The notes below the pieces were generated by a model. It saw only the letters and a program-made list of their open reading frames with translations, made no database searches and was not told the origin of the DNA. Position numbers and translations under genes: made by a program. Positions 1 to 27,026 of a stretch of DNA of 64,000 bases are shown in pieces. Where the stretch lies: contig SHWP01000011.1 in NCBI GenBank assembly GCA_009693785.1, forward strand, positions 2,370 to 66,369, written 5' to 3'. Each line of letters begins with the position of its first letter. The stretch's first letter is position 1. This DNA is from Rhodospirillaceae bacterium (GTDB taxonomy: Bacteria; Pseudomonadota; Alphaproteobacteria; Rhodospirillales; Rhodospirillaceae).

Positions 1-586
1 ACATTATTGCGTGGCTAATCAACACCTAACCGCAATATAGTTAATTTCCCGAGTCGATTCAAGAATCTCAATGGGTTAGCAATCTCACCCACAGCCTGCT
101 CCCATAACGGCACCTTAAAACAGGCTTATTTGAAGCCAGTTTTGGCCTACTGGAATAATCAATTGTACCCAAGGCCGTGGCAGACTATTTTCCAAGTGAC
201 CGGTTTTTGGAAATCGCAGGCAATTCGGCCTTTCTGCGTGAGGCCATTGAAATAAAAAGAAATTTGCCGCCTGCCCGAAGCAAACACCGGTCGCGAGAAG
301 CAAGATGCCTCCCTGTGCGGTGCAAGATGTTGCGCTGAGCGGTCGGCAAGAACCCATCGGGGGACTGGCGCAGTGCAATTCAGCGTCCAACACATAACGG
401 CCCAAGTCAGCCTGCCAGCGTATCCGGCAGCGCAGCCGTTTGGCGCATTTTCACACGAGGCACGCGGCTTGGCCGCGGGCGACGCCATGTCTCCTTTATC
501 ATTTCAACACACAAACAATGCGGCCCTCGGCGCACGCGCGCCCTCATGCGTTCGGTTGGAACGCGGCCGTCGGAGAAGTAATCGCT
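1..586 (+). promoter_or_regulatory. Long non-coding region upstream of rne (promoter plus probable long structured 5' UTR)
   Basis: There is no convincing ORF here. The 440..586 extension of the rne ORF has no RNase E-like sequence. RNase E genes are known to have long autoregulatory leaders. Confidence 0.35.
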
Positions 587-3500
587 ATGGTCAAACGGAT
601 GCTGATCGACGCCACGCATCCCGAGGAAACTCGGGTGGTGGTTCTGGACGGAACGCGGCTTGAAGAGTTCGACGTCGAGACGTCGACCAAGAAGCAGAAT
701 AAAGGCAATATTTATCTAGCTAAGGTGGTTCGGGTCGAACCGTCGCTGCAAGCGGCGTTTGTCGACTACGGCGGCAACCGCCACGGCTTCCTCGCCTTTA
801 GCGAAATCCACCCCGACTATTACCAAATCCCCGTTGCCGACCGCGAACGGCTGCTGGCCGAAGTTCAGCGCCATGAACGCCACGACGATGACGATGGCGG
901 TTCGCACTCGGAAGCCAACCACCCTACGCCCGACCAACCCGAGCAGCCCGATGCCACGCCCGAGGGTGACACAGCCGGTGATGACGCCGCCACCGGTGAC
1001 ACTGGGCACGACAACGGCGGATATAGCGAAAGCAATCCGGGCGATGCCAGCGCGGCGTTGCCGCTGAGCTACTCGACAGCAAGCGTATCGTCCGAACCAA
1101 TCCCGCAGGATGCGGCCCCCGAACCTGTCAACGATGCCCCGGTCGAACCGGCTCAGCTCGAGCAAAGCCCATTCGTGCCCGCCGATGCCGCGCCGGTTGG
1201 CGATGGTGTTGAGGCGCTGGCGTCTGACAACAGCTCTAATATCGACGCAGCCGCATCCAACGAGTCCTTCGCGGCCGACATTGCCTCCAACAGCGACCTT
1301 CCCCAGGGCGAATCCACATCTGCGTCTGAACCCAGCGAGGATGTAGGTGCGCGCGGCTCTCAAGTCGAGGATGCTCCGGTCGAAGAGCGCCCCGTCGACA
1401 TCGTGGGCGGTGGCGAGGAAAACGAGGGCGATGACGCCGAAGACGCCGACGAAGATGAAGACAGCAAGCGCCGCCGCCGGTTCCTCGCCTCGCGCCATTA
1501 CAAAATCCAAGAAGTCATCAAGCGCCGCCAGATCATGCTGGTGCAAGTGGTCAAGGAAGAGCGCGGCAACAAGGGCGCGGCACTCACTACTTATTTATCG
1601 CTGGCAGGCCGCTATTGCGTGTTGATGCCCAATTCCTCGCGCGGCGGCGGTGTGTCGCGCAAGATCACCAACGCCACCGACCGGCGCCGCCTGAAGTCGA
1701 TCATGGCCGAGTTGGATCCGCCTAAGACGGCGGCGGTGATTCTGCGCACGGCGGGCGCCGAGCGCAGCAAGCCCGAAATCACGCGCGACTATGAATATTT
1801 GATGCGCACGTGGGATGTGATCCGCGAGAACACGCTGCAATCGCGCGCACCGGCGCTGATTCACGAAGAAGGCAACCTGATCAAGCGGGCAATCCGCGAT
1901 GTCTATTCCAAGGATATCGAGGATATCCTGGTGGAAGGCGCGGAAGGCTACAAGACCGCCAAAGACTTCATGCGGATGCTGACTCCCAGCCATTCGAAAA
2001 AAGTTCAACTCTACGACGACGGCAACATATCTCTATTCCAACGGTATCAGGTCGAAACACAGCTTGAGGCCATTAATACGCCCGTCGTGCAGTTGCGCTC
2101 GGGCGGCTCAATCGTGTTCGGCCAGACCGAGGCCTTGGTCGCCATCGACGTGAACTCGGGCCGCGCCACGCGCGAACGCCATATCGAGGAAACGGCGCTT
2201 AGAACCAATATCGAGGCCGCCGATGAGATTGCCCGGCAACTGCGCCTGCGCGACTTGGCGGGCCTGGTGGTCATCGACTTCATCGATATGGAAGAAAACC
2301 GCAATAACCACGCGGTCGAACGCCGGTTGAAGGAAGCACTGAAGCTCGACCGCGCGCGCATTCAAGTGGGCCGCATCAGCCACTTTGGCTTGCTCGAACT
2401 CTCGCGTCAGCGCCTGCGCCCCAGCCTGATCGAGACTAACTTCCGCCCGTGCGATCATTGCGCCGGAACCGGGTTGATCCGCTCGACGGAATCCTCGTCC
2501 ATCTACGCCCTGCGCATGATCGAGGAAGAAGGCATCCGCCGCCGCTCAAGCGAGTTGACCGTCACGGTGCACCCCGATGTCGCGCTTTACCTGCTCAACT
2601 ATAAGCGCGAGCAATTGGCGACGTTGGAAGCCCGCTATGGCCTGCGTATCTTCGTGCTGGGCGATCCGGTGCTGGTGCAACCCAACTTGCGCATCGACCG
2701 CGTGAAAGCCACACGGCCCATGGCCGAGGATGTGACCGCGCAAGCGCCGCAAGCCCTGCCCGCCCCAACGTCTGAACCCATCGCAGAGCCGGAAGACGAG
2801 ATTATCCCCGAGGACGACGTCCCCCCTGTAGAAGTAGCCGCCACAGCCGAGCCCGCGCGCAACTTAGAGGGCGACCGTGGCCCTCGCAGTGATCACGATG
2901 GCGAGCGTAACCGCGGCGGCCGCGGACGCCGCCGACGCCGTCGTGGCCGACGCGACGGACGGGATGGACATCGCGATCATGCAACCGGCGGACATGCCGG
3001 TGATCAATCTGGAGAAACCCCAAGCGCGGCATCAGCACCGAATAGCCCTGAGCAAAACGCTGAAACTGGCCCTGTCATCGCCCATGAGAGCGGCGAGACT
3101 CAAGGTGTTGCAGGTGAACCGGGCCACGCAGGCGAGCAAGGCCGCGAGGATCGCGGTGCACGCCGCCACCACCGTGGCCGACGGGGCGGACGCCGCCGCC
3201 GCCGCGAATTTGGCGACCAACAAGGCCCGGCCCAACAGGGCGATGGCTCGTTGACGCCTAACGATCAAGTCACCAACGACGTCTTTAATACCAACCGTGC
3301 GAACGAAGGACGCATGGAGGCCACGGAACCGCCCGTGTCCAGAGATGGTGCGGCCACGGAAGACGCACAACCCCGCAAGCGCGGCTTCTTCAGCGCGATC
3401 AAAGAGACCGCGCTGTCGTGGACACGGAGTGAACCCACTGATGTGGCCGAGCCGCGCCCAATTGTGGCACCGCCTCCGGCACCCGTGCCAGTTACTCCGC

Positions 3501-3616
3501 CACCGCCGCCACCACGCGTGGTTGAGCCTCCTCGCCCGGCTCCGCCGCCACCTGTGGTCGACGAACCGCCAGCAGGCCCGCCGAAACGGGGCTGGTGGAG
3601 TCAACCAAAAGAATAA
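587..3616 (+). CDS. rne: Ribonuclease E
   Basis: The ATG at 587 gives MVKRMLIDATHPEETRVVVLDG, a typical RNase E/G N-terminus. The S1 and catalytic core are present (AVILRTAGAERSKPE, VAIDVNSGR, LVVIDFIDME, CxxCxGxG). There is an acidic low-complexity insert and an Arg/Pro-rich C-terminal tail. Confidence 0.9.
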   Translation: MVKRMLIDATHPEETRVVVLDGTRLEEFDVETSTKKQNKGNIYLAKVVRVEPSLQAAFVDYGGNRHGFLAFSEIHPDYYQIPVADRERLLAEVQRHERHDDDDGGSHSEANHPTPDQPEQPDATPEGDTAGDDAATGDTGHDNGGYSESNPGDASAALPLSYSTASVSSEPIPQDAAPEPVNDAPVEPAQLEQSPFVPADAAPVGDGVEALASDNSSNIDAAASNESFAADIASNSDLPQGESTSASEPSEDVGARGSQVEDAPVEERPVDIVGGGEENEGDDAEDADEDEDSKRRRRFLASRHYKIQEVIKRRQIMLVQVVKEERGNKGAALTTYLSLAGRYCVLMPNSSRGGGVSRKITNATDRRRLKSIMAELDPPKTAAVILRTAGAERSKPEITRDYEYLMRTWDVIRENTLQSRAPALIHEEGNLIKRAIRDVYSKDIEDILVEGAEGYKTAKDFMRMLTPSHSKKVQLYDDGNISLFQRYQVETQLEAINTPVVQLRSGGSIVFGQTEALVAIDVNSGRATRERHIEETALRTNIEAADEIARQLRLRDLAGLVVIDFIDMEENRNNHAVERRLKEALKLDRARIQVGRISHFGLLELSRQRLRPSLIETNFRPCDHCAGTGLIRSTESSSIYALRMIEEEGIRRRSSELTVTVHPDVALYLLNYKREQLATLEARYGLRIFVLGDPVLVQPNLRIDRVKATRPMAEDVTAQAPQALPAPTSEPIAEPEDEIIPEDDVPPVEVAATAEPARNLEGDRGPRSDHDGERNRGGRGRRRRRRGRRDGRDGHRDHATGGHAGDQSGETPSAASAPNSPEQNAETGPVIAHESGETQGVAGEPGHAGEQGREDRGARRHHRGRRGGRRRRREFGDQQGPAQQGDGSLTPNDQVTNDVFNTNRANEGRMEATEPPVSRDGAATEDAQPRKRGFFSAIKETALSWTRSEPTDVAEPRPIVAPPPAPVPVTPPPPPPRVVEPPRPAPPPPVVDEPPAGPPKRGWWSQPKE

Positions 3617-3627
3617 TTAAAATAAAA

Positions 3628-3671
3628 ACATCGCCGCACGGATTTTCACCGGGCGGCGATGTGGTTTTGTG
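3628..3671. terminator. Bidirectional rho-independent terminator between rne and the repeat-protein gene
   Basis: The stem ACATCGCCGC (3628-3637) pairs with GCGGCGATGT (3653-3662). It is flanked by an A-run upstream and GGTTTTGTG downstream, and it lies between convergent stop codons. Confidence 0.6.
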
Positions 3672-3677
3672 AGCCTA

Positions 3678-6600
3678 TTATATGGTCAGCGCGACTTGTT
3701 GCGTCGTGGTCATCAGTGCGAGCTGAGCGCCCGTGAAGGCTGCGGCCTGCAAATCGTTTAGCGCCACCAAACCTGTCGCCGACAGCGATGGGATTTGTGC
3801 CGCCGTGATGAACGGAATATCAACGACTTCCAGGCCCGTGTATTGCGTCGTCGTCATGCCGCCAATCTGAGCCGTGGTGAGCTCGGCGATTTGCTGCCCG
3901 GTCAGCGCCTTGATCTGGCCCGAGGTTAGCCCGCTAAACTGCACGGTCGTCAGGGCAACGATATTCGTCGTGCTCAGGCTGACAATCTGCGGCGCCGTCA
4001 ACGCGCTAATTTGCGTCGGCGTCAAAATGCTGATTTGCGTCGTGGTCAAAATCGCGATGTTGGTGACGCTAATAATCCCAATCTGGGTCGTCGACAGGCC
4101 GCCCATCTGTAATGTGGTCAGCGCATCGAACTGTCTCGTGCTTAGCAAATGGACCTGATCTTGGGTTAAGCCGGCGATTTGCGATGTCGACAGCGACCCA
4201 ATGTTAACTGTGCTAATGGCGGCCACTTGGGTGGTGGTTAAAGCGGTAATTTGCGCCGAAGTTAGGCCCGTCAACTGCACTGTGCTGATTGCAGCGATGT
4301 TGGTCGTGCTGAGTCCTTTGACTTGAGTCGTCGTCAAGCTTCCAAGCTGCGTGGTCGTGACGACAGCAAATTGCGGCGAAGTGAGCGCGTTCAGTTGAGT
4401 CGACGTCAATGCGACGATTTGCGCCGTCGATAAATTGACAATCTGCGTCGTTGATAACGAGGTCACTTGGGGCGTCGTTAAGACCGCCACTTGAGTGGAC
4501 GTCAAGCCGCTCAACTGTATCGTGGATAGGTTGACGATACTGGTGGTGCTGAGGCTGACCACTTGCGGCGCGGTCAACGCCCCCAATTGGCTCGACGAAA
4601 TACCGCTCAGTTGAACCGTTGTCATCGCCGCAATGTTCGTGACGGTGAACCCCTTGATTTGGAGTGTGGTCAAAGCGCCCAGTTGAACGGTTGAAAGTGA
4701 GGCGAACTGCGCGGTATTGAGCGCATCGAGTTGGTCCGATGACAAACCGCCAATCTGCGCTGTCGTGAGGCTGCCGATTTGGCTGGTATCCAGCGCGACC
4801 ACCTGTTGTGCCGAGAGCACGCCAAGTTGCGTCGCGCTCAGACCGGTCAATTGCGCGGTCGTGATGACCGTGACATTGGTGACGCTCAGCCCTTTGATCT
4901 GGGTCGTGCTCAAGGTCGCCAATTGAACGGTTGATAATGCGCTGAGCTGCGTGGTCGTCAGCGCGCCGACTTGTGCCGAGGTGAGCGCGTTGATTTGGGT
5001 GGCCGTCAGCCCGCCGATTTGCATCGTCGTCAGGGCTGCGAAATTCGTGGTACTCAGGCCCGTCAATTGCGAAGTGGTGATTCCGGCAAACTGGGTTGGC
5101 GTTAGATCGCCAATGCTGGTGGTGGACAACGCGCTCAACTGAGTGTTGGACAGGACAGCAATTTGGATCGCAAGCAGCCCTGCCAACTGCGCGGTCGTCA
5201 TGGCCGCTAGGTTGGTGGTGTTAAGGCCCTTTACTTGAGTTGTCGTCAAACTGCCCAATTGGATCGTCGTAAACGACAAAAACTGCGTGTTGGTTAGAAC
5301 ACCCAGTTGCGCGGCCGTGAGGCCATCGACTTGCGCTGTGGTCAGGCCCCCGACATGAGCCGACGTGAGCGCCGTGACTTGTGTCGTGGACATCGCGCCC
5401 AACTGAGCCGAGGTCAAGCCAGTGAACTGCGCCACCAAAAGCGCGGCAATATTGGTGGTTGTCAGGCTCTTGACCTGGGTCGTGGTCATATTGCCCAACT
5501 GAACCGTCGACAACGCCGATAGTTGTGTCGTCGTCAGAACGCCAACCTGCGTAGCCGTGAGCGCTTTAACTTGGGTTGTCGTGAGTCCGCTGACTTGCAG
5601 CGTGGTCAAAATGATAAAATTCGTGGTGGTCAACGCAGCGAGTTGCGCGTTCGTGAGGCCGCCCAATTGCGTCGTAGTCAAACCCGCCAGGTTGGTGGCG
5701 TTGAACGCGTTCACCTGAACGGTCGTCAGCGCGCTGATTTGAGTTGTATTGAGACCTCTAAGCTGAATTGTCGACAGCGCCGTGATGTTGGCGGTGGTCA
5801 GACTCTTAACCTGAGTCGCCGTAAAAGTACCAAGCTGGACCGTGGTCAACGCCGAAAACTGAGTGGTATTCAGCACGCTCAATTGCGTGGCGGCTAAGCC
5901 CTTCACTTGTGTTGTCGACAGATTACCCAACTGGGCCGTGGTAAAGGCCGTGATTTGGGTCGATGTAAATGCGGCAATGTGCGTCGAGGACATGCCGGTG
6001 AATTGCGACGTGGTCAGCGCGGCGACATTGGTGGTCGTCAAGCCCTTGAGTTGGGTCGATGTCATGTTGCCCAACTGTAACGTGGTCAGCGCGCTGAGTT
6101 GTGTGGTGGTGAACGCGCCGATCTGCGTTGAGGCAAATCCGCGGACTTGAGTTGTGGTCAATCCGCCAAGTTGCAACGTAGTAATGGCCGACACGTTGGT
6201 TGAATTCAATCCCGCCAGCTGCGTTTTCGTCAGCCCGCCGAGTTGAACGGTCGATAGGTTGGCGATTGCTGTTGTGTTGAATGCATTGAGCTGGGTCGCT
6301 GATAGGTTGTTGATTTGGGTTGTGCTGAGATCCGAGAGCTGCGTGGTTGTCAGCACCGCCAGATCGGTTGTGTTGATACCACGAACCTGCTTGACGCTCA
6401 GGCCGCCCAGTTGAGTTGTGGTCAGCGCGCCAAATTGCGTTGATGTCAGAGCACCGATCTGCGCCGCCAAAAGCCCTTGGATCTGCGTTGTTGTCAGCGA
6501 ACCAATACTTGTCGTTGCCAAAGCGCTGATCTGCGTATTCGTCAATACGCCCAATTGTGAGGCGAGCAAGCCACTCAGTTGAACGGTCGTCAATGCCGCC

Positions 6601-7631
6601 ATGTTCGTGGTGCTGAGGCCCTTGATCTGTGTTGTCGACATGCCGCCCAGTTGGGTCGTCGACAGGCTGGCGAATTGACTGGCCGTCAATGCGCCCAATT
6701 GCGCTGCCGTGAGCGACCTGATTTGTGTCGTCGCGAACCCAGAAATATGAACCGTGGTCAGCGCGGCGACGTTGGTTGTGTTGATGCCTTTCAACTGCGT
6801 GTTGGTCAGATTGAAAAGCTGCGTCATGGTCAACTGTCCGATATTGGTCGTGCTGAGTGCGTTGAATTGGGTGGCGGTCAGCGCCCGAAGCTGTGTCGTC
6901 GCCAAACCGTTCAACTGCACGGTCGACAATGCGCCCACGTTGGTTGTGTTGACCGCCCCAATCTGAGCAGCGCTTAGGCTATTGAGCTGGGTCGTCGTGA
7001 GATTGGTCACGCTGGTGGTGGTCAGGGCATTGAACTGTCCGGCCGTAAGCGCAGCCAGTTGTGTTGTCACCAGTCCGCGTAGCTGAACTGTTGTGAACAC
7101 GGCGATATTGATTGTGGTCAATCCCGCGATTTGCGCCGCGATAAGGCTTCCCAACTGCACCGTCGTCAGCGCCGTGAAATTGCTGGTGGTCAACGCGCCA
7201 ATTTGTGCCGCGGTGAGGCCATCAATTTGAGTGATCGTGAGCCCGGCGATATTCGTTGTCGTTACGGCGTTAACTTGCGTCGTCGTCAGGCTGCCGATTT
7301 GCGCTGAAGTCAAACCACCCAGTTGGGTTGTCGATAACGCGCCCATGACGGTGGTGCTGAGCGCTTTGAGCTGCGTAGCCGAGAGAATTCCAAGCTGCGT
7401 TGTCGTCAACGCGCTGAGCTGCGTCGTGTTAAGAACCGCCAGTCCCGTGGTGTTGAGCCCCTTGACCTGTGTGGTCGAGAACGTGCCGAGTTGAACCGTG
7501 GTCAATGCGCTGAATTGGCCTGCCAGCAGATAGCTAAGTTCGACAGGTTCAAACGCCGCGATCTGCGTTGTCGTAAACGCAGCAAGCTGCGTCGTCGTCA
7601 GCCCCTGAATAAACGTTTGCGACAAAGCCAT
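3678..7631 (-). CDS. Giant octapeptide-repeat protein (163 in-register 8-aa units, consensus L-[TS]-T-x-Q-[LIV]-x-[GAS]); family unknown
   Basis: This is a single 1317-codon ORF. The whole translation parses into 8-residue units. The plus-strand ORFs inside it are repeat shadows. Confidence 0.75.
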   Translation of the reverse strand: MALSQTFIQGLTTTQLAAFTTTQIAAFEPVELSYLLAGQFSALTTVQLGTFSTTQVKGLNTTGLAVLNTTQLSALTTTQLGILSATQLKALSTTVMGALSTTQLGGLTSAQIGSLTTTQVNAVTTTNIAGLTITQIDGLTAAQIGALTTSNFTALTTVQLGSLIAAQIAGLTTINIAVFTTVQLRGLVTTQLAALTAGQFNALTTTSVTNLTTTQLNSLSAAQIGAVNTTNVGALSTVQLNGLATTQLRALTATQFNALSTTNIGQLTMTQLFNLTNTQLKGINTTNVAALTTVHISGFATTQIRSLTAAQLGALTASQFASLSTTQLGGMSTTQIKGLSTTNMAALTTVQLSGLLASQLGVLTNTQISALATTSIGSLTTTQIQGLLAAQIGALTSTQFGALTTTQLGGLSVKQVRGINTTDLAVLTTTQLSDLSTTQINNLSATQLNAFNTTAIANLSTVQLGGLTKTQLAGLNSTNVSAITTLQLGGLTTTQVRGFASTQIGAFTTTQLSALTTLQLGNMTSTQLKGLTTTNVAALTTSQFTGMSSTHIAAFTSTQITAFTTAQLGNLSTTQVKGLAATQLSVLNTTQFSALTTVQLGTFTATQVKSLTTANITALSTIQLRGLNTTQISALTTVQVNAFNATNLAGLTTTQLGGLTNAQLAALTTTNFIILTTLQVSGLTTTQVKALTATQVGVLTTTQLSALSTVQLGNMTTTQVKSLTTTNIAALLVAQFTGLTSAQLGAMSTTQVTALTSAHVGGLTTAQVDGLTAAQLGVLTNTQFLSFTTIQLGSLTTTQVKGLNTTNLAAMTTAQLAGLLAIQIAVLSNTQLSALSTTSIGDLTPTQFAGITTSQLTGLSTTNFAALTTMQIGGLTATQINALTSAQVGALTTTQLSALSTVQLATLSTTQIKGLSVTNVTVITTAQLTGLSATQLGVLSAQQVVALDTSQIGSLTTAQIGGLSSDQLDALNTAQFASLSTVQLGALTTLQIKGFTVTNIAAMTTVQLSGISSSQLGALTAPQVVSLSTTSIVNLSTIQLSGLTSTQVAVLTTPQVTSLSTTQIVNLSTAQIVALTSTQLNALTSPQFAVVTTTQLGSLTTTQVKGLSTTNIAAISTVQLTGLTSAQITALTTTQVAAISTVNIGSLSTSQIAGLTQDQVHLLSTRQFDALTTLQMGGLSTTQIGIISVTNIAILTTTQISILTPTQISALTAPQIVSLSTTNIVALTTVQFSGLTSGQIKALTGQQIAELTTAQIGGMTTTQYTGLEVVDIPFITAAQIPSLSATGLVALNDLQAAAFTGAQLALMTTTQQVALTI

Positions 7632-7913
7632 TGCGGTTCACTCTGGCCGGACAGTGCTGATTGCACTGTTCAGCGTTGCTCGCAGAGGGCCTGCCAAATC
7701 GAAAAATTTTCCGACGTTCGACGGGAACCTGGAGGTTAAAAGTGGGGCACCTCTGCGAACATCAAACTATTGGCCGATTAGATTAAGAAAGGGTTGCAGA
7801 ACGGCGTATTTTTGCGGTTTTTGAAAATAAGATAAACTATTGATATATAATGATATTTTTAAATTAAAACTGACAGCTACGACGACCATGACCGCCCCCG
7901 GCGTAAGGAGCGC

Positions 7914-9068
7914 TTAACCCGCCTTCATCCAGGCCCCGATCCGGTTACAAGCCTCGGCGATTTCCCCCTCTGAAACGGCATAGGACAGCCGCATCCAATC
8001 CCGTCCGTGAACCGGGTCGAAGTCGAGACCAGGAGTAACCGCCACGCCCGCCTCATGGAGAATCTTCCGGCACACCTCGGGGGATCCCAAACCCAGGTGC
8101 GCGACATGGACATAGAAATAAAACGCGCCATCGGGCGGTGAGAATTTCGGAAAACCAATTTCAGGCAAACGGCGCAGGAGCACCTCGCGGTTGCGCGCAT
8201 AAATGGCAACATTGGCTTCCAACTCATCGATGCAATCGAATGCTGCGAGTGCAGCGTGCTGTGATGCTGCCGGCGGCGAGATGTACAAATTCTGCGCCAA
8301 GCACTCGACCGAGCGGTATAAATCGTCGGGCACGACCATCCAGCCCACGCGCCAGCCCGTCATGCTGAAGTATTTCGAGAAACTGTTGATGACGATGGCC
8401 GAGGGCGACAACTCAATCGCGGTCACGGCATCCATGCCAAAAGTGATGCCATGGTAGATTTCATCCGAGATCAACCGGATACCGTGTTCATGGCAATAGT
8501 TGACCAGCTCGTGAAATACACCGGGCTCGATCATTGAGCCGGTGGGGTTGGCGGGACTGGCGATAATCACGCCATCGGGTAGCGACGGGAGGTTTTTGAG
8601 ATGATCGACCGAAATATTGAAACGCGAGGCGGCATCGACCGGGATCAGATCAACCTGAATGCCATAGGCCCCCAGGATATGCCGGTACGATGGATAACCA
8701 GGCGCGGCCACGGCCACGCGGTCCCCCGCATCGAAAGCTGCGAGGAACGCCAAGGTGAAAGCCGCCGATGAGCCTGTGGTGATAAACACCCGGTCGGGGC
8801 GAACCGCCACGGCATAAGCGTCGTCGTAATAGCGCGCGATACGTTCGCGCAAACTCAAAATACCATCGGCCACGGTGTAACCGAGTTTGTCTTGACCAAT
8901 CAAAGACGCAACTTTCCGCGCGGCGGCCTGTGGCATACCCGTCGAGGGCTGACCTACTTCAAGATGCACGATCGAACGGCCTTGGGCTTCAAGGGCAGCG
9001 GCGTCACGCATCACATCCATGACGATAAAGGGCGGTACTGCGCCGCGTTGCGATGATTTCAAACTCAC
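7914..9068 (-). CDS. PLP-dependent aminotransferase (class I/II)
   Basis: The 384-aa product has a typical aminotransferase layout, including the SFSKYFSMTGWRVGW lysine motif and a start of GAVPPFIVMDVMRDA. Confidence 0.85.
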   Translation of the reverse strand: MSLKSSQRGAVPPFIVMDVMRDAAALEAQGRSIVHLEVGQPSTGMPQAAARKVASLIGQDKLGYTVADGILSLRERIARYYDDAYAVAVRPDRVFITTGSSAAFTLAFLAAFDAGDRVAVAAPGYPSYRHILGAYGIQVDLIPVDAASRFNISVDHLKNLPSLPDGVIIASPANPTGSMIEPGVFHELVNYCHEHGIRLISDEIYHGITFGMDAVTAIELSPSAIVINSFSKYFSMTGWRVGWMVVPDDLYRSVECLAQNLYISPPAASQHAALAAFDCIDELEANVAIYARNREVLLRRLPEIGFPKFSPPDGAFYFYVHVAHLGLGSPEVCRKILHEAGVAVTPGLDFDPVHGRDWMRLSYAVSEGEIAEACNRIGAWMKAG

Positions 9069-10255
9069 TGCCTGTCCTCCGGCCCCAACGTCTTACCCAA
9101 ACCAAAGCCCCGCACATCGGCCAAGGTGCGGCATTCTTTACCAACCAAGGCCAGGCCACCCAAGCACACGGCAGCGCTGACATCACCTTGTACTCCGTCT
9201 TCCGAGAGCGCTTGAACCTCTGCGCGCATCGCCTCGTAAGGTTTCTCGTTAAGCAGCCAATTCGTGATCAGACTGTGGCGCAGTTCCAACGCGCGGTTGC
9301 CATGAGCAACGGCTGCTAACACAACCTGTGAATATCGCGCATCCGCAGCGACAAACGCCTGCAATTGCCTAGGTGCTGTGTGGCGCACGCCATAGAGATA
9401 ACCACCCTCTGCGGCCATGACTCCACGACCAAACGCCGAGCCCATGGTCAAGGCGCACGCAACGGCTAGGCCGTTGCGATCTCCTACCACAAAAGCAGTT
9501 GAAGCCATGTCTTGTGGTGTTGTCGAGCCGTCTATTGCAGATGGGCCATACACCATAAAATCGCCCTGCTCGGTCGTGTTGGCCTGGCTCCACACTGGCG
9601 GCACAGATGATTGTGCTGCCGCACCGCGCATGCGGAGAAGTGCCATCGTGTCCGCGAGCGTCAACAGCTTGATCTCGGCACCAGCGGTGACGAATTGCCT
9701 TTGCCGGTCCATGAAGGCCCGCAATGCCGCCGGATCGTTCATCAATCTGCCAGCGTTCTTGGCCAAATCATCGGCCAGCATTTTCGAGACAGTAAAACCG
9801 AACCGCGCCAACGCTTCGGCCGGTGCCACGGCGTTAGACCATGGGCGTTTTCCATATCGCGATTGCAACGCAGCCAAGCCGCGCGCCAACATCGGTATGT
9901 TCTTGTCATCGCGGATTAAAAAATCCAGCACCTCGGCTTTTGCTAAAGCCGTATCATAGACAGTGCACAGGCCACCGCCGCCAAGCCCAGCGCGTGAGGG
10001 CAATGTCACAGCCAATGACAGGCCCATGGCCGCTGCCGCATCGGCGGCGTTGCCACCGGAGCGCAACATCTCCTGCCCCGCCAATACAGCGCGTGGTTCG
10101 TCTGCGGAAATAACGCCAATAAAACCGGGATTACCCGGTGCTGCCGTGTCGGGGGCAACTTGCGTGGCGCACGCCCATAGCCCAAACGAGAGCATTACAA
10201 CTGTGACAACCCCACTCAGGCCGGGAAATCGCCATATTTGACCTATATCGGCCAT
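9065..10255 (-). CDS. Gamma-glutamyltransferase family protein (short form, probable lipoprotein)
   Basis: GGT-like motifs are present (SADEPRAVLAGQEMLRSGGNAADAA, LGGGG, STAFVVGDRNG). I chose the internal ATG at 10255 because it gives a lipobox-like signal (LSFGLWAC). The track ORF extends to 10483. Confidence 0.65.
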   Translation of the reverse strand: MADIGQIWRFPGLSGVVTVVMLSFGLWACATQVAPDTAAPGNPGFIGVISADEPRAVLAGQEMLRSGGNAADAAAAMGLSLAVTLPSRAGLGGGGLCTVYDTALAKAEVLDFLIRDDKNIPMLARGLAALQSRYGKRPWSNAVAPAEALARFGFTVSKMLADDLAKNAGRLMNDPAALRAFMDRQRQFVTAGAEIKLLTLADTMALLRMRGAAAQSSVPPVWSQANTTEQGDFMVYGPSAIDGSTTPQDMASTAFVVGDRNGLAVACALTMGSAFGRGVMAAEGGYLYGVRHTAPRQLQAFVAADARYSQVVLAAVAHGNRALELRHSLITNWLLNEKPYEAMRAEVQALSEDGVQGDVSAAVCLGGLALVGKECRTLADVRGFGLGKTLGPEDRQ

Positions 10256-10310
10256 TCGGCCTGATAGGCTAAATTCGGCGGTTACGATTTTGGGCTGCAA
10301 TAGGACAGAC

Positions 10311-11729
10311 ATGAACCGGGGTACCGGATATCGCAGGCAAGCTTGGTGGAATGACGCGCTCACGCGGGGCCGCGCTGCGGCTTTGGCCAGCGTGGCAATG
10401 GCCGCGCTGATTGGTAGCCCTGCGCCTGCAGTTGCGCAAGGTTTGAACATCATCCGCGACACCGAGATTGAGGAGATCCTCAACGCTTATGCAAAGCCCC
10501 TACTAGAGGCTGGCAACATTGCGCCAGAATCCATCACCATTCGCTTGATCTCCGACGAAAGCATCAACGCCTTCGTCACACGCGGCAACCAAATGTTCAT
10601 TCACACCGGGCTGTTGTTGGCGGCTAAAAACGCCAACGAAGTGATCGGCGTCATCGCCCACGAAACCGGCCACATTGCTGGCGGTCATGCCATCTCATTT
10701 GGTGATGGCGTGGCTGTGGCCAGCACCACGGCATTGCTGGCCACGCTGCTGGGTGTCGTGGCGGGCGTCGCCTCTGGCAACCCCGATGTCGGTATGGCCA
10801 TGGCCTTGGGAGGCCAAGGCACTGCGCAACGCATGTTGTTCGCCTTCAGCCGTGGCCAAGAATCCTCTGCTGACCAATTCGCCATCCGGGCGCTTGAACA
10901 AACTCAACAATCGCCCAAGGGACTCTATGAGTTTTTCAACCGGCTGGCGGGCCAGGAATTATTGATCACCGACCGGCAAGACCCTTATGTGCGCACGCAC
11001 CCGCTGAACCGCGAGCGCATGGGCGCAGTGAATTTCGCGGTGCAGAATTCGGCGTACTCAAATAAACCCGCCGACCCAGAACTTGACCGCCTGCACCGGC
11101 GCACCGTGGCAAAGTTGTTTGCTTTCTTGAAGCCGCAGATGACCACATTCCAGAAATACCCTGAATCCGACAAAAGCCCCGAAGCGCGCTACGCTCAATC
11201 CATCGCGTTTTATCGCCGCGGCCAGATGAAAGATGCCCTGCCGGTGATCGACGGCCTGATTAAGGAATTCCCGAAAGACGCCTATTATTGGGAACTCAAG
11301 GGCCAGATGTTGCTGGAAAATAGCCGGATCGAAGAAGCCATCGTCGCTTACCGCGAGACGGCCAAACTGCTACCTAAAGCCCCATTAATCTTGGTGTCTA
11401 CGGCCCACGCCATGATCGAAAGCGGTGATCCGGCTTATGCCAAAGAGGCGCAAGGTGCCTTGCAGGCCGCCCTGCGCCAGGACCCCGAAGACCCCTTCGC
11501 TTGGGATTTGGCTGCCAAGTCGTACCTCCAGAGCGATCAGGCCGGGATGTCGGCCTATGCCGCCTCGGAAAGGGCGCTATTGCTGGGTCAATTTGGCGAT
11601 GTCATCCGCTATAGCCGGGAAGCCGAAAGATTACTGGAAAAAGGCACGCCGACTTGGTATCGCCTGCAGGACATCAAGGTCACGGCTCAGAACTACCTGC
11701 AAGAAATGATGGAAAAACGGCGGCGCTAG
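10311..11729 (+). CDS. M48 family metalloprotease with C-terminal TPR region (BepA/YfgC-like)
   Basis: It has the HExxH motif (VIAHETGHIAGGH), a signal peptide ending AVAQG, and a TPR-like C-terminal half. The start could instead be the TTG at 10290. Confidence 0.8.
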   Translation: MNRGTGYRRQAWWNDALTRGRAAALASVAMAALIGSPAPAVAQGLNIIRDTEIEEILNAYAKPLLEAGNIAPESITIRLISDESINAFVTRGNQMFIHTGLLLAAKNANEVIGVIAHETGHIAGGHAISFGDGVAVASTTALLATLLGVVAGVASGNPDVGMAMALGGQGTAQRMLFAFSRGQESSADQFAIRALEQTQQSPKGLYEFFNRLAGQELLITDRQDPYVRTHPLNRERMGAVNFAVQNSAYSNKPADPELDRLHRRTVAKLFAFLKPQMTTFQKYPESDKSPEARYAQSIAFYRRGQMKDALPVIDGLIKEFPKDAYYWELKGQMLLENSRIEEAIVAYRETAKLLPKAPLILVSTAHAMIESGDPAYAKEAQGALQAALRQDPEDPFAWDLAAKSYLQSDQAGMSAYAASERALLLGQFGDVIRYSREAERLLEKGTPTWYRLQDIKVTAQNYLQEMMEKRRR

Positions 11730-11770
11730 CCCAAGGCCGCCGGGCCAGCCAACTCGTTTAGGACAGTCCA

Positions 11771-12523
11771 ATGAAAACGATCGTATCATTCATGATGCCC
11801 GTGCTGGCCATGGCCGTGCTGTCGGCCGGGCCTGCCCTCGCCCAAGACAAGAGCGCCTTCACGCCCGCGCAGCGCGAGGAAATGAAAACCTTGGTGCGCG
11901 ACTACTTGCTGGAAAACCCCGAAGTCATCGCTGACGCCATTGGCAAACTTCAAGAAAGAGAAGAAGCCAAAAAAGAGCAAGAGCGCATGGAATTGATCGC
12001 CAAGCGCAAAGACGAGCTCGTCAATCCCAAGGAACAGACTTACCTCGGCAACCTGCAAGGCGATGTGACCATCGTTGAGTTCTTCGATTACAACTGCGGT
12101 TACTGCAAGTCGATGTTCCCCGACCTGATTCAACTGGTGAAGTCGGATGGCCGTATCCGCCTGGTGATGAAGGAATTTCCCATTCTCGGACCGCAGTCGG
12201 TGACCGCCACTAAGGCCGCACTCGCTTCGCGTAATCAACGCAAGTACAGCGAGTTTCACCAAGCATTGCTGGCTTACAAAGGCGGGTTGAACGAAGCCGC
12301 CATCAACACAGTGGCCAAGGGTGTGGGTCTGAATGTCGAGAAGCTGCAAGAAGACATGAAAGACACCGAACTTGATAAACTTATCAAAGACAACCGAGAC
12401 CTCGCTCAAGCCCTGGGCATCACCGGCACGCCAGCGCTGTTGATCGGTGATACCTTTATTGGCGGTGCAATCGGCCGCGACAAACTGTCCGAACTCGTCG
12501 CCGCAGCCCGGAAAAAAGGCTAG
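11771..12523 (+). CDS. DsbA family thiol:disulfide oxidoreductase
   Basis: It has a signal peptide, a CGYC active site within FFDYNCGYCK, and a thioredoxin-fold layout. Confidence 0.85.
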   Translation: MKTIVSFMMPVLAMAVLSAGPALAQDKSAFTPAQREEMKTLVRDYLLENPEVIADAIGKLQEREEAKKEQERMELIAKRKDELVNPKEQTYLGNLQGDVTIVEFFDYNCGYCKSMFPDLIQLVKSDGRIRLVMKEFPILGPQSVTATKAALASRNQRKYSEFHQALLAYKGGLNEAAINTVAKGVGLNVEKLQEDMKDTELDKLIKDNRDLAQALGITGTPALLIGDTFIGGAIGRDKLSELVAAARKKG

Positions 12524-12534
12524 GCCCCAATTCA

Positions 12535-13122
12535 ATGTCTGAATTTAGCGACAAAGAGCGCCATCGCTTCCGGCGCCTCCTCGAGGTCGCCCATTCGACG
12601 ACTTTCGATGGCGAGCGTGAAGCGGCCTTGGGCGCGGCAACGCGCCTGGCTGACACGCATGGCATGACATTGCGCGAGGCTGCGGGTATGGCCGAGGCCA
12701 ATGAACCCCGCGCGCCAACGCCGCATCGCCGCCCGCCGCCCAAGCCCGAACCCTGGACAGAGACAGTGCATGGGCGGAATTTGCATGATGCCTTGCGTTC
12801 GCGTCACAAAGCCCATGCGCCGGGGCAGCATTTCGATTCTGAGCTCAATGCCATCAAGGCCGATAAGCTACGTTTCGAGAAAGCGATGCAAGATGCGATC
12901 GCGCGCGGGCTCGACGCTGAAGAACGGCGTAGGAAAAAACGCATCGAGGCCATGATGGCTGCGGCGCGCAAGCGCTCGTCGCGGCGCTGGCGCCCCCGGG
13001 CCGAATTTGTCCGGGTCTTGCTCAATGAAACGCAAATGACCGTGCGCGAAATCGCCTTGACCGTGGGCGTACCCGTCAACGATGTCGTGCGCGAAAAACT
13101 GCTTCTGCGCCGCGCCGCGTAA
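12535..13122 (+). CDS. Hypothetical protein (DUF2786-like N-terminus, basic C-terminal HTH-like segment)
   Basis: The ORF encodes 195 aa. The RRLLEVAHSTTFDGEREAALGAATRLA pattern resembles DUF2786. No catalytic motif was recognised. Confidence 0.45.
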   Translation: MSEFSDKERHRFRRLLEVAHSTTFDGEREAALGAATRLADTHGMTLREAAGMAEANEPRAPTPHRRPPPKPEPWTETVHGRNLHDALRSRHKAHAPGQHFDSELNAIKADKLRFEKAMQDAIARGLDAEERRRKKRIEAMMAAARKRSSRRWRPRAEFVRVLLNETQMTVREIALTVGVPVNDVVREKLLLRRAA

Positions 13123-13129
13123 GCCGCTA

Positions 13130-14476
13130 TTAGCGCTTGAGATCGCGAGTTTGCTGCATCATCTCGTCGGCCGTGCGCAGCACAGTGGCCGAGCTTGAGT
13201 AGGCGCGCTGCGTGACGATCATTTTCGAAAACTGATCGGCCAAATCCACGTTCGAGGATTCGAGCACGCCCGAGATCACTTGGGCGAGACCTTGCACAGA
13301 GTTCAAGCCCTGCAGCTTACGCTGGCCCGCCTCGCGGGTTTGCACAAAGTAATTGCCTGACTTGGCGTCAAGGTTGTTTTGTGCGGCAAACGTCGCGATC
13401 GGCAGTTTGAACAGCGGGCGTAGACCTTGATTGGTGTAGCTGCCGATCAGCACGCCATTTTCGTTGAAGTAAGTTTCCTTCAGGCGGCCTTGTAAGTAGC
13501 CATCCTGATCGAGGTTGAATACCGTGAGGTCGCCGCTGTCGCTTAGTTGCTGCACCTTCTTGATATCCATGGTGATCAGCTGCTGCCCAGTGGCATTGGC
13601 AATCGAGAAAATCAAACGCCCCGACGGGGGTTCGATCAACTTGCCCTCGCCATCGAAGCGCACTTGAGGCGGTAATGGGTTTCCAGACGCATCCAGCGTC
13701 GGTGGTATCGCATTTCCTGCGGCGTCGGCCAACGCCACGATGGTTGTAACCGGGTTGCCTGCCGTATCTAAGCTGTTCAGATCGAGGGTATAGCTGCCGC
13801 CTTGGCTCGGGATCGGCGTGAAGCCCAGCGTAACCGTACGTGAAAAACCGTCCGCATCGACAAATGGCATACCCACGGTTTGACGATTCGTACCGCCCGC
13901 CGACACGTTGGCTTGCAACGTAATATTGCGCGTTGCACGTGCCGGGAAAATTTCATTGCTGTTGATGCTGATGGGCGCCAGCTTCGTCAAGTCATCGGCT
14001 TCGTCGAAGTTGCCATTGGCATCGGCCTGCCAACCATACACGTAAGCGCCAGCCGACGTTGTTAACAGTGTCGCCTGATCAAGCTGACCGTCGTTGTCGC
14101 TATCGGTCGTCAGGCGAATCGACTTGCCGTCCAACGCGCCGTCGCGGGTGTATTGCCAAATTCCGCCGCCATCGGTGGCGGTATTGGTCACGAAGAAACC
14201 GCGGCCATTGATGGCCAAGTCGAGCGAGCGGTTGGTATTTTGCAAGAAACCTTGCTTGTCGACATTGCGGGTATCGCGCGTGTCGACCGCGAAAAAACTT
14301 TGCGGGCCATTCCCATGCCCGGGCCGGACGTGGTTGAGGATGGTCTGGAAATGCGTGTTCTGAAGCTTGTAAGCCGTGGTGTTGACGTTGGCGATATTCG
14401 TCGAGATGACCGACAAACTCTGCGCCTGCGCGTTCAACGCCTGCGTCGCGGTGTTCATCGTTGCTTTGATACTCAT
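13130..14476 (-). CDS. flgE: Flagellar hook protein FlgE-like (hook/rod family)
   Basis: The N-terminus contains ISTNIANVNTTAYK. The C-terminus reads LESSNVDLADQFSKMIVTQRAYSSSATVLRTADEMM, typical of FlgE/F/G. The start was set at the internal ATG (MSIKATMNT). Confidence 0.75.
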   Translation of the reverse strand: MSIKATMNTATQALNAQAQSLSVISTNIANVNTTAYKLQNTHFQTILNHVRPGHGNGPQSFFAVDTRDTRNVDKQGFLQNTNRSLDLAINGRGFFVTNTATDGGGIWQYTRDGALDGKSIRLTTDSDNDGQLDQATLLTTSAGAYVYGWQADANGNFDEADDLTKLAPISINSNEIFPARATRNITLQANVSAGGTNRQTVGMPFVDADGFSRTVTLGFTPIPSQGGSYTLDLNSLDTAGNPVTTIVALADAAGNAIPPTLDASGNPLPPQVRFDGEGKLIEPPSGRLIFSIANATGQQLITMDIKKVQQLSDSGDLTVFNLDQDGYLQGRLKETYFNENGVLIGSYTNQGLRPLFKLPIATFAAQNNLDAKSGNYFVQTREAGQRKLQGLNSVQGLAQVISGVLESSNVDLADQFSKMIVTQRAYSSSATVLRTADEMMQQTRDLKR

Positions 14477-14680
14477 GGCTCTCGCTCCGGTCCCACACTC
14501 AAATGCCCCGATCCGCCCAACTGACACTTCGGGCGCACTGAGGGCTTGCTTTGCTCATTACAAAGCAAGCCCTGTGCCAGGGCAGAACAATTTCTGAATC
14601 AAGGGGTTAGGTCGAGATACGCCAGGTTAAGACGGTGGATCTGCGTAAATGACCCGGCAGGATTTGCCGGGCTAATAGGC

Positions 14681-20813: not shown

Positions 20814-21002
20814 ATCTGGGCTGCTCTTTTCATACAGTTTTTCCCGTCCGTGCAAGGCCTTAACAGCGCCGCACGGCACACGACGAGGGCCGAGGGGAAG
20901 GCACGAGGAGAGACCGATCTAGGCCGCAGCCGAATACGGCGCGCGGGTCGGTTGGGTTCGTGCCTGACACCCCACCCCGGTGCAGTTTCGGAAAGGTTGC
21001 CC

Positions 21003-24000: not shown

Positions 24001-24710
24001 TGGGCGAAATCTTCATCGATATGCACAAGGAAGGCGCGGCCTTCCGCAGCCTGATGAACAACTTCGCCATCGCCATTTCCATTGGCCTGCAATACGGCGT
24101 GCCGCTGGAAGAATATGTCGATGCCTTCACCTTCACCCGGTTTGAGCCGGCGGGCGCGGTCGAAGGCAATGCCTCGATCAAAATGGCCACGTCGATTTTA
24201 GATTATCTGTTCCGCGAGTTGGCAGTCTCATACCTGGGCCGCCATGATTTGGCCCACGTGGAACCTCACGACGTGCTGCCCGATGCCATGGGCGATGGTG
24301 TGGCCGCCGAGAAACTGCTGCAACTAGCCGAGAAGACCATCTCGCAAGGCTATGTGCGCTCGAGCAATCTGTATTTCCTCAAACATCCGTCGCGCAATGG
24401 CGCCAATAACACCGGCTCATCGGGCGGCATTACGGCCAGCGTTTCTCACGCGGTCTCCTCACCCGCAGCTTCACCGGGCAGCCCCACAGCCATGGCCGGG
24501 ATGGGCCGGGTGATGGGTTCGGTCGCCGAGAAAATGGAAGTTAACGTGCGCGTGACCGAGGTCACGAAGTCGCGCACTAGTTCGCTCAACGTGGCGCGCA
24601 TGCAGGGCTACGAGGGCGACAATTGCCCCGAGTGCGGCAACTTCACGCTGGTGCGCAACGGCACATGCCTGAAGTGCGAAACTTGCGGCGGCACCACGGG
24701 ATGTTCGTAA
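21003..24710 (+). CDS. nrdJ: Adenosylcobalamin-dependent (class II) ribonucleotide reductase
   Basis: The product is about 1235 aa starting at the ATG at 21003 ([11 protein letters not shown]). Matching motifs are [21 protein letters not shown] and ISKTINMP, plus a C-terminal Cys-rich tail (CPECG...CLKCETCG). Confidence 0.92.
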
Positions 24711-24746: not shown

Positions 24747-25748
24747 ATGAACAGCATGCTTCCCGCGACCTTGGCTCAAGTCGCCACTTCAGATCCGGTG
24801 AAGATTTCAGGTTTTGGCGTATCCCAACGCGTGCCCGAGGATTTGTCGGCCTGCTTTGCCGAATTCTTACGCCGCATCGTGCCCACCAGCCCCGCCTACA
24901 TGGCCGCACGAAATGCCGGTGTGGAGATTGCGGGCGTGCTGCGTGATGAACTCTACCGCAACGCGACCATCGAAGTGGCCGAGACTGACCACATTGTTGT
25001 GGGCAGCGTGGGCAAACGCACCGCCATCGCGCCTATCCGCGTGGTCGACTTGCTCTATGCCTTGCCGCCTAAACTTGGTCTCATCAAAGCCGCCGATGCG
25101 CTGAAGATGACCTGGGCCGTGGTAAAATCGCGCCACCCCGAAACCCAGATCGCCGAGGACCAATCGGGCGTCATCGTTCCGCGCGCTGGCATAACGGTGA
25201 AGATTCTGCCGTGTTTGCCGCGCGAGGGCGCATTCTTGGTGCCGGGCCCGCCCACGCTTGACCGCGCCTCGGGGTGGAGCATCACCAACCCCATCGCCGA
25301 AGCGGCCACGTTGCGCCTGATGGACAGCATGTACGGCAGCCGCCCGCGGTTGTTGCTGGCGGTGTTGAAGGCCTGGCGGAATACCAACGAGGTGCCGATT
25401 TCATCCTTCGCGTTGGAACTGCTGGCGCAGGATTTTTATACCAGCGCGCCACGGCCCTATGCTTTGGCACCAGCGCTGGTGGATTTCTGGGCGTGGTCGC
25501 GCAAACGCACGCCCGCCACATTGCGCCCGCCGGGCGCATCCACGCATGTCGTCATCGATGATGCCTGGCATGGCAAGGCCAAGGCCGCCTATTGGCGCGC
25601 GACCTTGGGCGAGTATCACGTAGGCCAAGGCAAGGTGGTGGACGCAGCGCTCGAATGGCGGCTCACGTTCGGGCCAAAGTTCCCGGTGCCGGGCGACCGC
25701 GCCGAGACCCTGCCCTTGTTCCGCGAGAAAGCCCGCCGCCACGCCTAA
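24747..25748 (+). CDS. OAS/CD-NTase (SMODS)-like nucleotidyltransferase-fold protein with degenerate catalytic triad
   Basis: The motifs [38 protein letters not shown] and ISSFALELL line up with OAS1 [37 protein letters not shown] and PQYALELL. Confidence 0.55.
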   Translation: [333 protein letters not shown]

Positions 25749-27018: not shown

Positions 27019-27026
27019 GGGCCTAC

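Follow-up and report, generated by a model that had tools for sequence, protein, structure and literature searches.

A stretch of 64,000 nucleotides from a Rhodospirillaceae bacterium (contig SHWP01000011.1 of assembly GCA_009693785.1, positions 2,370 to 66,369; the window hereafter) carries on its reverse strand a gene for a 1317-residue protein made almost wholly of eight-residue repeats. By its sequence, this protein is a mid-sized member of a catalogued, uncharacterised family, the ALTTAQ repeats of Pfam PF20080, and we regard both the family membership and a predicted fold of the helical-screw type, in which very short α-helices wind into a tight superhelix, as very likely to be correct. 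We further propose that this helical screw forms a rod, exported by a type I secretion system and possibly glycosylated, that serves as a fibre. This favoured reading, taken as a whole, appears to us fairly probable.

Family, predicted fold and super-period

With an offset of 10 residues, the translated open reading frame (ORF) divides into 163 full octads followed by LTI, without insertion, deletion or register break. Position 1 of the octad is always hydrophobic (L/F/I/M/V in 163/163 units). T/S/N fill position 2 in 148 units and position 3 in 122, with A at position 3 in a further 25; position 5 holds Q in 128 units and N in 21, position 6 holds L/I/V/F in 157, and position 8 holds A/G/S in 126. 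A period of 8.0 and its harmonics dominate the residue-level power spectrum, with a power of 63 where the next non-harmonic peaks reach about 3-4. The 21 units with Asn at position 5 (N5 units) lie 3-17 units apart, and 9 of them come right after a unit with Lys or Arg at position 7 (K/R7 units). The product has a mass of 133.7 kDa and a pI of 9.7, contains 22.7% Thr and lacks Cys and Trp; only 3% of its residues are charged, its grand average of hydropathicity (GRAVY) is +0.49, and no signal peptide, transmembrane segment or non-repeat Pfam domain was found in it.

At the DNA level, no exact repeat of 20 bp or more occurs within the gene, and identity between the 24-bp units is 0.48-0.57. Identity between units is 0.29-0.34 at the third codon position versus 0.57-0.61 at positions 1 and 2, which points to purifying selection on the translated repeat. 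The array is neither a recent expansion nor an assembly artefact. Two independent assemblies, ENA ERZ1305449 and Logan SRR8561390, yield an identical 1317-residue product, and the second of them shows 3 mismatches and 0 gaps against the window over 10.1 kb; the array length is thus reproducible, and 3678..7631 is a genuine, selected gene. An earlier note on this DNA had described the in-register octads, the residue preferences at each position, the N5 subclass, the marked divergence of the DNA units and the absence of signal peptide, transmembrane, RTX, autotransporter, sortase and non-repeat domains, and the present analysis bears out each of these.

The same note had taken the family to be unknown, which does not hold. 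The protein matches PF20080 with 604 bits (cut-off 26.4; E=1.8e-186) in 49 stretches; NCBIfam models gave no match to it. A word-indexed search of 5.8 billion proteins returned 239 matches, all through the octad repeat and at 21-45% identity, and an exhaustive HMMER search of 1.84 billion cluster representatives returned 2,689 at E<=1e-3 and 180 at E<=1e-30, so that the family amounts in public data to some 2,700 clusters formed at 50% identity. The repeat behaves as a promiscuous module and is found fused to calpain-type proteases, to ESPR plus two-partner secretion (TPS) domains, to RTX/serralysin-C/P-domain modules, to G8/CEMIP β-helices and to Ig-like domains.

The longest unbroken in-register run among 220 sampled metagenomic homologues is 107 octads. 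By tblastn of annotated plasmids and chromids with a 600-residue query, we found cultured alphaproteobacterial proteins that consist of the repeat alone and align over 95% of the query at 33-44% identity (40-44% for those of Niveispirillum, Pseudoroseomonas and Cereibacter). Single-register arrays reach 194/194 octads in Cereibacter sphaeroides 2.4.1 (WP_011836189, 1561 residues), 209 in Rhizobium sp. CCGE532 (1687 residues), 234 in Niveispirillum cyanobacteriorum (1970 residues) and 360 in Rhodovastum atsumiense (2913 residues). The array of 163 octads is therefore not uniquely long, since cultured Alphaproteobacteria reach 194-360 unbroken octads. Against PF20080, the Cereibacter protein reaches 1192 bits and that of Niveispirillum 1459 bits.

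We refer to these proteins informally as the repeat-only ALTTAQ giants of Alphaproteobacteria, a subfamily defined in this analysis by an array that runs from a lead of 6-10 residues to the C-terminus with no other domain, as the window protein does. It shares with them the octad motif and register, the short lead, the C-terminal cap and the super-period of about 3.4 octads described below, at 40-44% identity over 570 residues. It differs in being shorter (163 versus 194-360 octads), the least charged and among the most Thr-rich, and its gene is chromosomal, between those for RNase E and an aminotransferase, without the type I secretion system (T1SS), GT41 or methyltransferase neighbours that accompany several, though not all, of the giants. 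The cap follows the motif F-T-x-x-Q-[LV]-x-x-M-[ST]-x-x-Q-x-x-A-[LIV], whose T, Q, M, Q and A do not vary among 7 sequences. Only 9 of the 163 internal octads have Met at position 1, and the conservation of the cap is thus no by-product of repetitiveness; by its sequence, the cap is a candidate solenoid C-cap, type I secretion signal, or both. The acidic octad FEPVELSY near the N-terminus has counterparts of its type in homologues (LETADLAA, FEPADAAA).

Some relatives deserve separate mention. WP_011836189 (plasmid b, L087:11683-16368; also in NC_009040 and NC_011960) is named 'ICE nucleation protein' in RefSeq and elsewhere 'heme utilization protein' or 'large exoprotein involved in heme utilization or adhesion'; the names 'ICE nucleation protein' and 'heme utilization protein' for PF20080 members are probably misannotations. 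The longest array found, that of Rhodovastum, lies on plasmid RHOApa (L090:9685-18426). PHROGs yielded a single match, PHROG 15773 (function not assigned; E=2e-19). P0079, an ALTTAQ protein of 1526 residues, is encoded at 10001-14581 of a 242-kb contig (L085, JGI 3300045404) that resembles a jumbo phage or giant virus, with an NAD-dependent DNA ligase, YqaJ, DUF5764 and mostly ORFans.

AlphaFold2 models of residues 1-394 and 931-1317, computed with alignments of non-overlapping self-tiles plus repeat segments of homologues, have a mean pLDDT of 93.7 (pTM 0.80) and 95.4 (pTM 0.83), respectively. DSSP assigns to them one helix of 5-6 residues per octad, at positions 3-7, with 2-3 non-helical residues in between, and no β-strand is predicted in either. 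This pattern holds as far as the last residue; it is briefly interrupted at LEVVDIPF, and the final helix is longer than the others. In the models, T/S/N at position 2 serves as the helix N-cap and Q at position 5 as N3; the hydrophobic core of the predicted fold is made up of positions 1 and 6. S/T-x-x-E/Q is the geometry of a capping box, and the earlier suggestion that S/T-x-x-Q caps a helix in each unit fits models whose helices span positions 3-7.

The best solved relative by sequence is HeliScrew4 (PDB 9ZEM), with E=1.7e-13 for the single sequence and E=1.1e-28 for the family profile; the alignment has 37 identities in 103 ungapped positions (36%), and the octad registers coincide. HeliScrew4 was designed from repeated random octamers, and its crystal structure is a tightly wound α-helical screw (bioRxiv 10.64898/2025.12.04.691947). 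Helical screws have S/T/D/N N-caps, an apolar core and 2.5-4.0 units per turn; the design authors cite one natural example in the PDB (7QLR), call the fold protein 'dark matter' and make no mention of ALTTAQ repeats (bioRxiv 10.64898/2025.12.04.691947). A helix per octad, an S/T/D/N N-cap and an apolar core are all present in our AlphaFold2 models. The designed octads L-[ST]-P-[ED]-Q-[IVF]-A-A align gap-free with the natural ones and share with them the short helix per octad (predicted here), the S/T N-cap and the hydrophobic core. Unlike the window protein, HeliScrew4 is a designed, highly charged protein of 120 residues without biological role, and it has Pro at helix N1 where the window protein has Thr. 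As an observation in its own right, its octads (LTPEQIAA) match TAL-effector repeats, whose 34-residue unit starts LTPEQVVAIA, with E of about 1e-18, and HeliScrew4 and the AlphaFold2 model each weakly match mesothelin; the capping motif is thus reused in unrelated helical repeats.

The higher-order period suspected in the earlier note is real and amounts to 3.43 octads. Unit-to-unit identity is maximal at lags of 24, 14, 10 and 7, and at lag 3 it is barely over baseline. The Fourier spectrum of octad variants has one sharp peak, at 3.43 units (27.5 residues, or 24/7 octads), which is present for N5, K/R7, G8, A8, V/I/L4 and A3 and is found in each half of the protein. When the array is folded at 24/7, two adjacent phase bins out of seven hold 20 of the 21 N5 units, and two others hold 17 of 20 K/R7 units; the normalised power for N5 is 18.8, corresponding to p of about 1e-8 per frequency. 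Super-periods of 3.38-3.43 recur in seven cultured homologues and in several metagenomic ones. In the query, Cereibacter and Niveispirillum, the super-repeat spans 24 units and the value of about 3.4 is its 7th harmonic; in Rhizobium, Thioclava and the metagenomic homologues P0024, P0125 and P0030, it spans 17 units and the value is its 5th harmonic. Same-codon usage at lag 24 is 0.40, barely above the background of 0.33-0.37, which indicates that the pattern is old and maintained by selection.

We infer from these sequence patterns that the super-period is the number of octads per superhelical turn, such that only whole-turn duplications would keep the surface pattern. Two duplication lengths, 24 and 17, that approximate one non-integer are what would be expected if this number were set by the turn. 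The super-period, a sequence value and not a geometric one, falls within the range of 2.5-4.0 units per turn of helical screws. Each octad L1-T2-T3-T4-Q5-[LIV]6-x7-[AG]8 would thus form one very short helix, and the helices would coil tightly into a superhelix that takes about 3.4 octads for each turn, or about 47 turns for 163 octads. If each turn rises by about 1 nm, as is typical of the distance between packed helices, the rod would measure an estimated 45-50 nm. Its surface would be nearly uncharged and covered in Thr, Ser, Gln and Asn, and the Asn and Lys/Arg variants would run as stripes along it.

Proposed export and glycosylation, and rival explanations

We examined eight loci from the closest relatives that either were annotated or could be. 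A type I secretion pair, an ATP-binding cassette (ABC) exporter and HlyD, lies beside the ALTTAQ gene in 4 of the 8, and 3 of these 4 also have GT41. In Cereibacter, Pseudoroseomonas and Niveispirillum the repeat gene divergently adjoins the ABC exporter, HlyD and one or two GT41 genes; the exporter has an N-terminal extension of about 170 residues ('peptidase domain-containing' in RefSeq), the GT41 enzymes are OGT-like and bear tetratricopeptide repeats (TPR), and S-adenosylmethionine (SAM) or FkbM methyltransferases and sugar-nucleotide genes are often also near. On plasmid b of C. sphaeroides 2.4.1, the adjoining proteins are WP_011836188 (GT41), WP_011836187 (ABC) and WP_011836186 (HlyD). 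The Niveispirillum cyanobacteriorum locus (L088: 646-8086, 15289-17019) has two tandem GT41, HlyD and the ABC exporter divergently upstream, a sigma-54 response regulator downstream of the gene for the 1970-residue protein, and a sigma-54-like motif GGCAT-N5-TTGCA about 100 nt before its start codon. In Pseudomonas asturiensis, TolC, HlyD and ABC genes together with glycosyl- and methyltransferases stand beside the ALTTAQ gene. Glycosyl- or methyltransferases without a nearby exporter occur in Rhizobium, Shinella and Rhodovastum. In Rhodovastum the gene is flanked on one side by a flagellar type III export cluster and on the other by a GT1 glycosyltransferase and a SAM methyltransferase; the Thioclava locus has neither kind of neighbour. 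Beyond these eight loci, Buttiauxella gaviniae (L084:6237-16715) carries a run of three calpain-type (Peptidase_C2) genes, of which two encode N-terminal ALTTAQ arrays. The run lies directly 3' of a type I secretion set (OEP, C39-ABC and HlyD genes) and upstream of a PATR/AC_1 autotransporter-like giant.

Based on the above data, we propose that the rod is exported without an N-terminal signal by a type I system that would recognise the conserved C-terminus, that its hydroxyl-rich surface may be glycosylated, and that it could act as a rigid extracellular or cell-surface fibre, whether spacer, adhesin or matrix element. This export reading draws on the contexts and fusion partners of relatives, on the missing N-terminal signal and the conserved C-terminus, and also on a composition that is uncharged, rich in hydroxyl groups and free of Cys. 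In the case of the window protein, we put export and a fibre function, argued by analogy with these relatives, at slightly better than an even chance.

Two known systems provide points of comparison. Type I-secreted giants such as RTX adhesins and Caulobacter RsaA are likewise large, Cys-free, built of repeats and devoid of an N-terminal signal, and relatives of the window protein are encoded beside an ABC exporter with a C39-like extension and HlyD. The window protein differs from them in lacking GGxGxD nonapeptides and Ig-like or β-roll modules, in being predicted helical and in having no transporter gene in the 64-kb window. HMW1 with its HMW1C/NGT (a GT41 enzyme), and bacterial OGT homologues, resemble the relatives in pairing GT41 with a giant repeat protein that has many potential acceptor residues. 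HMW1 is a TPS-secreted β-helix that is N-glycosylated at NX(S/T), whereas sequons are not enriched in the window protein and the window has no GT41. To our knowledge, the native substrates of bacterial GT41 (OGT/NGT-like) enzymes are mostly unknown, and our literature search found no relevant paper on GT41 paired with type I secretion.

Several observations weigh against the proposed exported fibre. No T1SS, GT41 or other glycosyltransferase gene lies in the 64-kb window, and export and glycosylation of the window protein are thus argued entirely by analogy. The metagenomic repeat-only homologues P0001 and P0027 are orphans in housekeeping neighbourhoods. N-X-S/T sequons number 24 versus 19.5 +/- 2.7 expected, which is no enrichment, and the window protein has no match to RTX GGxGxD motifs (PF00353). 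The conserved C-terminal motif could be only a structural cap. As to the fold, AlphaFold2 can give over-confident models of repeats, the figure of 3.43 octads per turn comes from sequence periodicity and not from model geometry, and a Foldseek search of the model against the PDB and BFVD returned generic α-solenoids only (TM <=0.3), among them importin, mesothelin and ankyrin, with neither 9ZEM nor 7QLR among the top matches. Lastly, our literature search found no experimental paper on any member of the ALTTAQ/PF20080 family, nor any that mentions the repeat.

The same gaps provide the case for an intracellular rod or scaffold, a cytoplasmic spacer or cytoskeletal element that is never exported, which we consider unlikely. 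It would account for the missing signal peptide, for the housekeeping neighbours and the lack of secretion and glycosylation genes in 64 kb, and for the P0001, P0027 and Thioclava homologues, which also lack secretion neighbours. However, type I substrates normally have no N-terminal signal and their transporters can be encoded elsewhere, and a T1SS is adjacent in 4 of the 8 close-relative loci. The repeat is elsewhere fused to RTX, TPS and Ig-like extracellular modules, and a Cys-free protein with 3% charged residues and a GRAVY of +0.49 would be unusual in the soluble cytoplasm.

Export through the flagellar type III apparatus, for instance as an accessory fibre of the filament or sheath, is improbable. 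It is suggested by the Rhodovastum homologue, which adjoins flhA/flhB/fliR/fliQ/fliI and flg genes, by a lone FlgE-like gene 5.5 kb from the repeat gene in the window, and by the flagellin-like, Cys-free and T/S/Q/N/A-rich composition. Such adjacency is nevertheless seen in one relative only, no Flg or flagellin N- or C-terminal domain was matched, and the five unrelated genes between the repeat gene and the FlgE-like gene are syntenic in relatives that have no repeat gene. A phage-derived tail or capsid fibre, domesticated or on a mobile element, would fit the match to PHROG 15773, the phage-like contig of P0079 and the lineage-specific insertion of the gene, yet we find it very improbable: a tblastn search of 50,697 phage genomes found nothing, the flanks of the gene contain neither an integrase nor att-like repeats nor phage genes, its codon usage and GC content at third codon positions (GC3) are host-like, and its nearest homologues lie on chromids or plasmids beside T1SS/GT41 genes.

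A β-solenoid of the leucine-rich repeat (LRR) or ice-nucleation protein (INP) kind, with the 8-residue period forming short strands, is harder still to credit. Weak to moderate HMM matches to 24-residue LRR proteins and to Pfam LRR_EndoS speak for it, as do the Thr-rich surface and the RefSeq name of the C. sphaeroides homologue; by inspection, 5 of 6 hydrophobic positions of three octads coincide with LRR positions, which explains those matches, and they are secondary to PF20080. LRR units are 20-30 residues long, of the form LxxLxLxxN with one β-strand each, and proteins of the InaZ family have 16-residue AGYGSTxT-type repeats, a β-solenoid fold and an N-terminal membrane anchor domain. The strict short periodicity (8/16 or 24 residues) and Thr-rich faces are shared, but the super-period here is 27.5 residues and not 16, 24 or 48. 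The LRR reading needs a 24-residue (3.0-unit) period, and the periods found are 8 and 27.5 residues, with identity at lag 3 barely over baseline and no predicted strands; AlphaFold2 yields only helices at pLDDT >93, the best solved sequence relative is an all-helical crystal structure, and homologues carry Pro at helix N1 like the designed screw. The ice-nucleation analogy drawn in the earlier note fails in the same way, with no INP match in Pfam or NCBIfam and a predicted fold that is all-helical. Finally, we give practically no weight to a non-functional origin (spurious ORF, assembly artefact or decaying expansion): the lack of nearby partner genes speaks for it. Against it stand the length of the ORF, 3.95 kb at a genomic GC content of 58%, the terminator after its stop, codon positions 1 and 2 conserved between units with position 3 near random, the lack of exact repeats of 20 bp or more, the same product in two assemblies and terminal caps conserved with distant homologues.

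Other candidate classes were rejected. CpxP and Spy are periplasmic helical hairpins of about 150 residues with a signal peptide and two LTXXQ motifs; their likeness to the window protein, raised earlier, is the literal string L-T-x-x-Q, which in the window protein is the repeated helix-capping unit. The string match is incidental, with no PF07813 match at E<=1 and no signal peptide. An RTX substrate is contradicted by the lack of a PF00353 match, and an autotransporter or TPS protein by the lack of ESPR, Sec signal, TPS domain and C-terminal β-barrel, some ALTTAQ homologues having ESPR plus TPS. What stands of the earlier reading overall is the gene, its features, the period and the capping idea; the unknown family and the ice-nucleation and CpxP links do not.

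The gene and its surroundings

The features of the gene and its flanks are given in Table 1.

Table 1. Positions of the repeat gene, its parts and its flanking signals in the window
Feature	Position	Strand	Description
Coding sequence, complete	3678..7631	-	ATG start, 1317 codons, TAA stop
N-terminal lead, 10 residues, MALSQTFIQG	7602..7631	-	Distinct from a signal peptide; comparable short leads occur in relatives
Array of 163 octads (163 x 24 bp)	3690..7601	-	One register; consensus L-T-T-T-Q-L-G/A-A
Variant octad FEPVELSY, residues 27-34	7530..7553	-	Acidic 'xE(P/T)xD/E' type
Divergent last 6 octads + LTI, residues 1267-1317	3681..3833	-	Modelled within the screw
Candidate C-terminal cap FTGAQLAL-MTTTQQVA-LTI	3681..3737	-	Motif common to six array-terminal homologues
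Intrinsic terminator	3618..3662	-	Hairpin 3628-3662, then U-tract UUUUUAUUUU
Upstream intergenic region, 282 bp	7632..7913	-	AT-rich at about 7811-7870; room for own promoter
Sigma-54-like -24/-12 motif TGGCAGGCCCTCTGC	7682..7696	-	51-65 nt upstream of ATG

The terminator hairpin (dG -23.5 kcal/mol, z -4.3) begins 16 nt past the stop codon, in the 61-bp gap between the repeat gene and the convergent RNase E gene; a consensus promoter/terminator scanner missed it on account of its internal-loop geometry, and direct folding recovered it. The sigma-54-like motif upstream of the gene is a candidate promoter that we offer as a lead only. Sigma-54 activators adjoin the ALTTAQ gene in two relatives; the core motif occurs across the window at the chance rate (5 observed versus 4.95 expected).

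The block ScsC-M48-GGT-aminotransferase-RNase E (440-12523) is syntenic in dozens of relatives, and its order is kept across many Rhodospirillales and other Alphaproteobacteria (loci L002-L030), with the repeat gene as the sole insertion here. Where the loci of relatives were inspected in detail, the aminotransferase and RNase E genes adjoin each other directly and converge. Across 80 related alphaproteobacterial loci, no ALTTAQ gene occurs at the syntenic position, so that there is no orthologue by position with which to compare repeat number. The repeat gene, its promoter region and its terminator are a lineage-specific insertion of about 4.3 kb. The GC3 of the gene is 0.70, against 0.61-0.80 in its neighbours, and its codon usage is similar to theirs; this host-like composition indicates that the insertion is not recent, and recent horizontal transfer finds no support in it.

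As a whole, the window reads as housekeeping DNA of an uncultured, Rhodospirillales-like alphaproteobacterium. The best genome match to the adjacent aminotransferase is at 64%. The window further encodes RNase E, a GGT-like protein, an M48/TPR protease, ScsC/DsbA, ThiSG, a biotin carboxylase, a class II ribonucleotide reductase, a ParE/GyrB-like protein and a SUF operon. A lone FlgE/FlgG-like rod/hook protein (Flg_bb_rod plus Flg_bbr_C; 13130-14527, reverse strand) stands isolated from other flagellar genes of the window, beside a small DUF2786-like ORF (12535-13122, forward). Directly downstream of the ribonucleotide reductase (20850-24710), a 333-residue protein (24747-25748, forward) has a SMODS nucleotidyltransferase domain (E=2e-7) and may, by this domain, be a CBASS-like or other second-messenger synthase. 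A DUF1501/DUF1800 gene pair follows at 25795-28601 (reverse). At 37448-38152 (forward) there is an IS200-like Y1 transposase (PF01797), possibly a tyrosine transposase associated with repetitive extragenic palindromes (REP). Two tandem paralogous class I SAM methyltransferases (39791-41059 and 41071-42240, forward) have N-terminal extensions of about 220 residues without a Pfam match, and a third methyltransferase, with a MethyTransf_Reg domain, is encoded at 45430-46956 (reverse).

Significance for the ALTTAQ family

The gene in the window is in itself unsurprising, its family being catalogued and longer arrays being present in model bacteria. The interest lies at the level of the family, in that the eight-residue α-helical screw appears to be the fold of a widespread natural family with some 2,700 clusters. 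Of note are the apparent tie between the natural ALTTAQ family and a designed fold, suggested by sequence and by the models, the phase-locked 24/7 and 17/5 periodicities and the recurrent GT41/T1SS neighbourhood in relatives. The sequence carries an apparent read-out of the superhelix, as 24 octads in 7 turns or 17 in 5.

A wider and rather doubtful possibility is that the repeat-only giants form an unrecognised class of surface fibres, natural helical screws exported by type I systems via the cap and decorated by GT41. The phase-locked stripes would then be functional lines on a rigid rod covered in hydroxyls, for glycans, for the binding of partners or for the binding of ice or minerals. If true, the helical screw, so far known only from designed proteins and one PDB entry, would have natural versions of hundreds of units. 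The gene of C. sphaeroides 2.4.1, a cultured and genetically tractable relative, lies beside an exporter and GT41 and offers a testable candidate substrate of the bacterial OGT-like enzymes.

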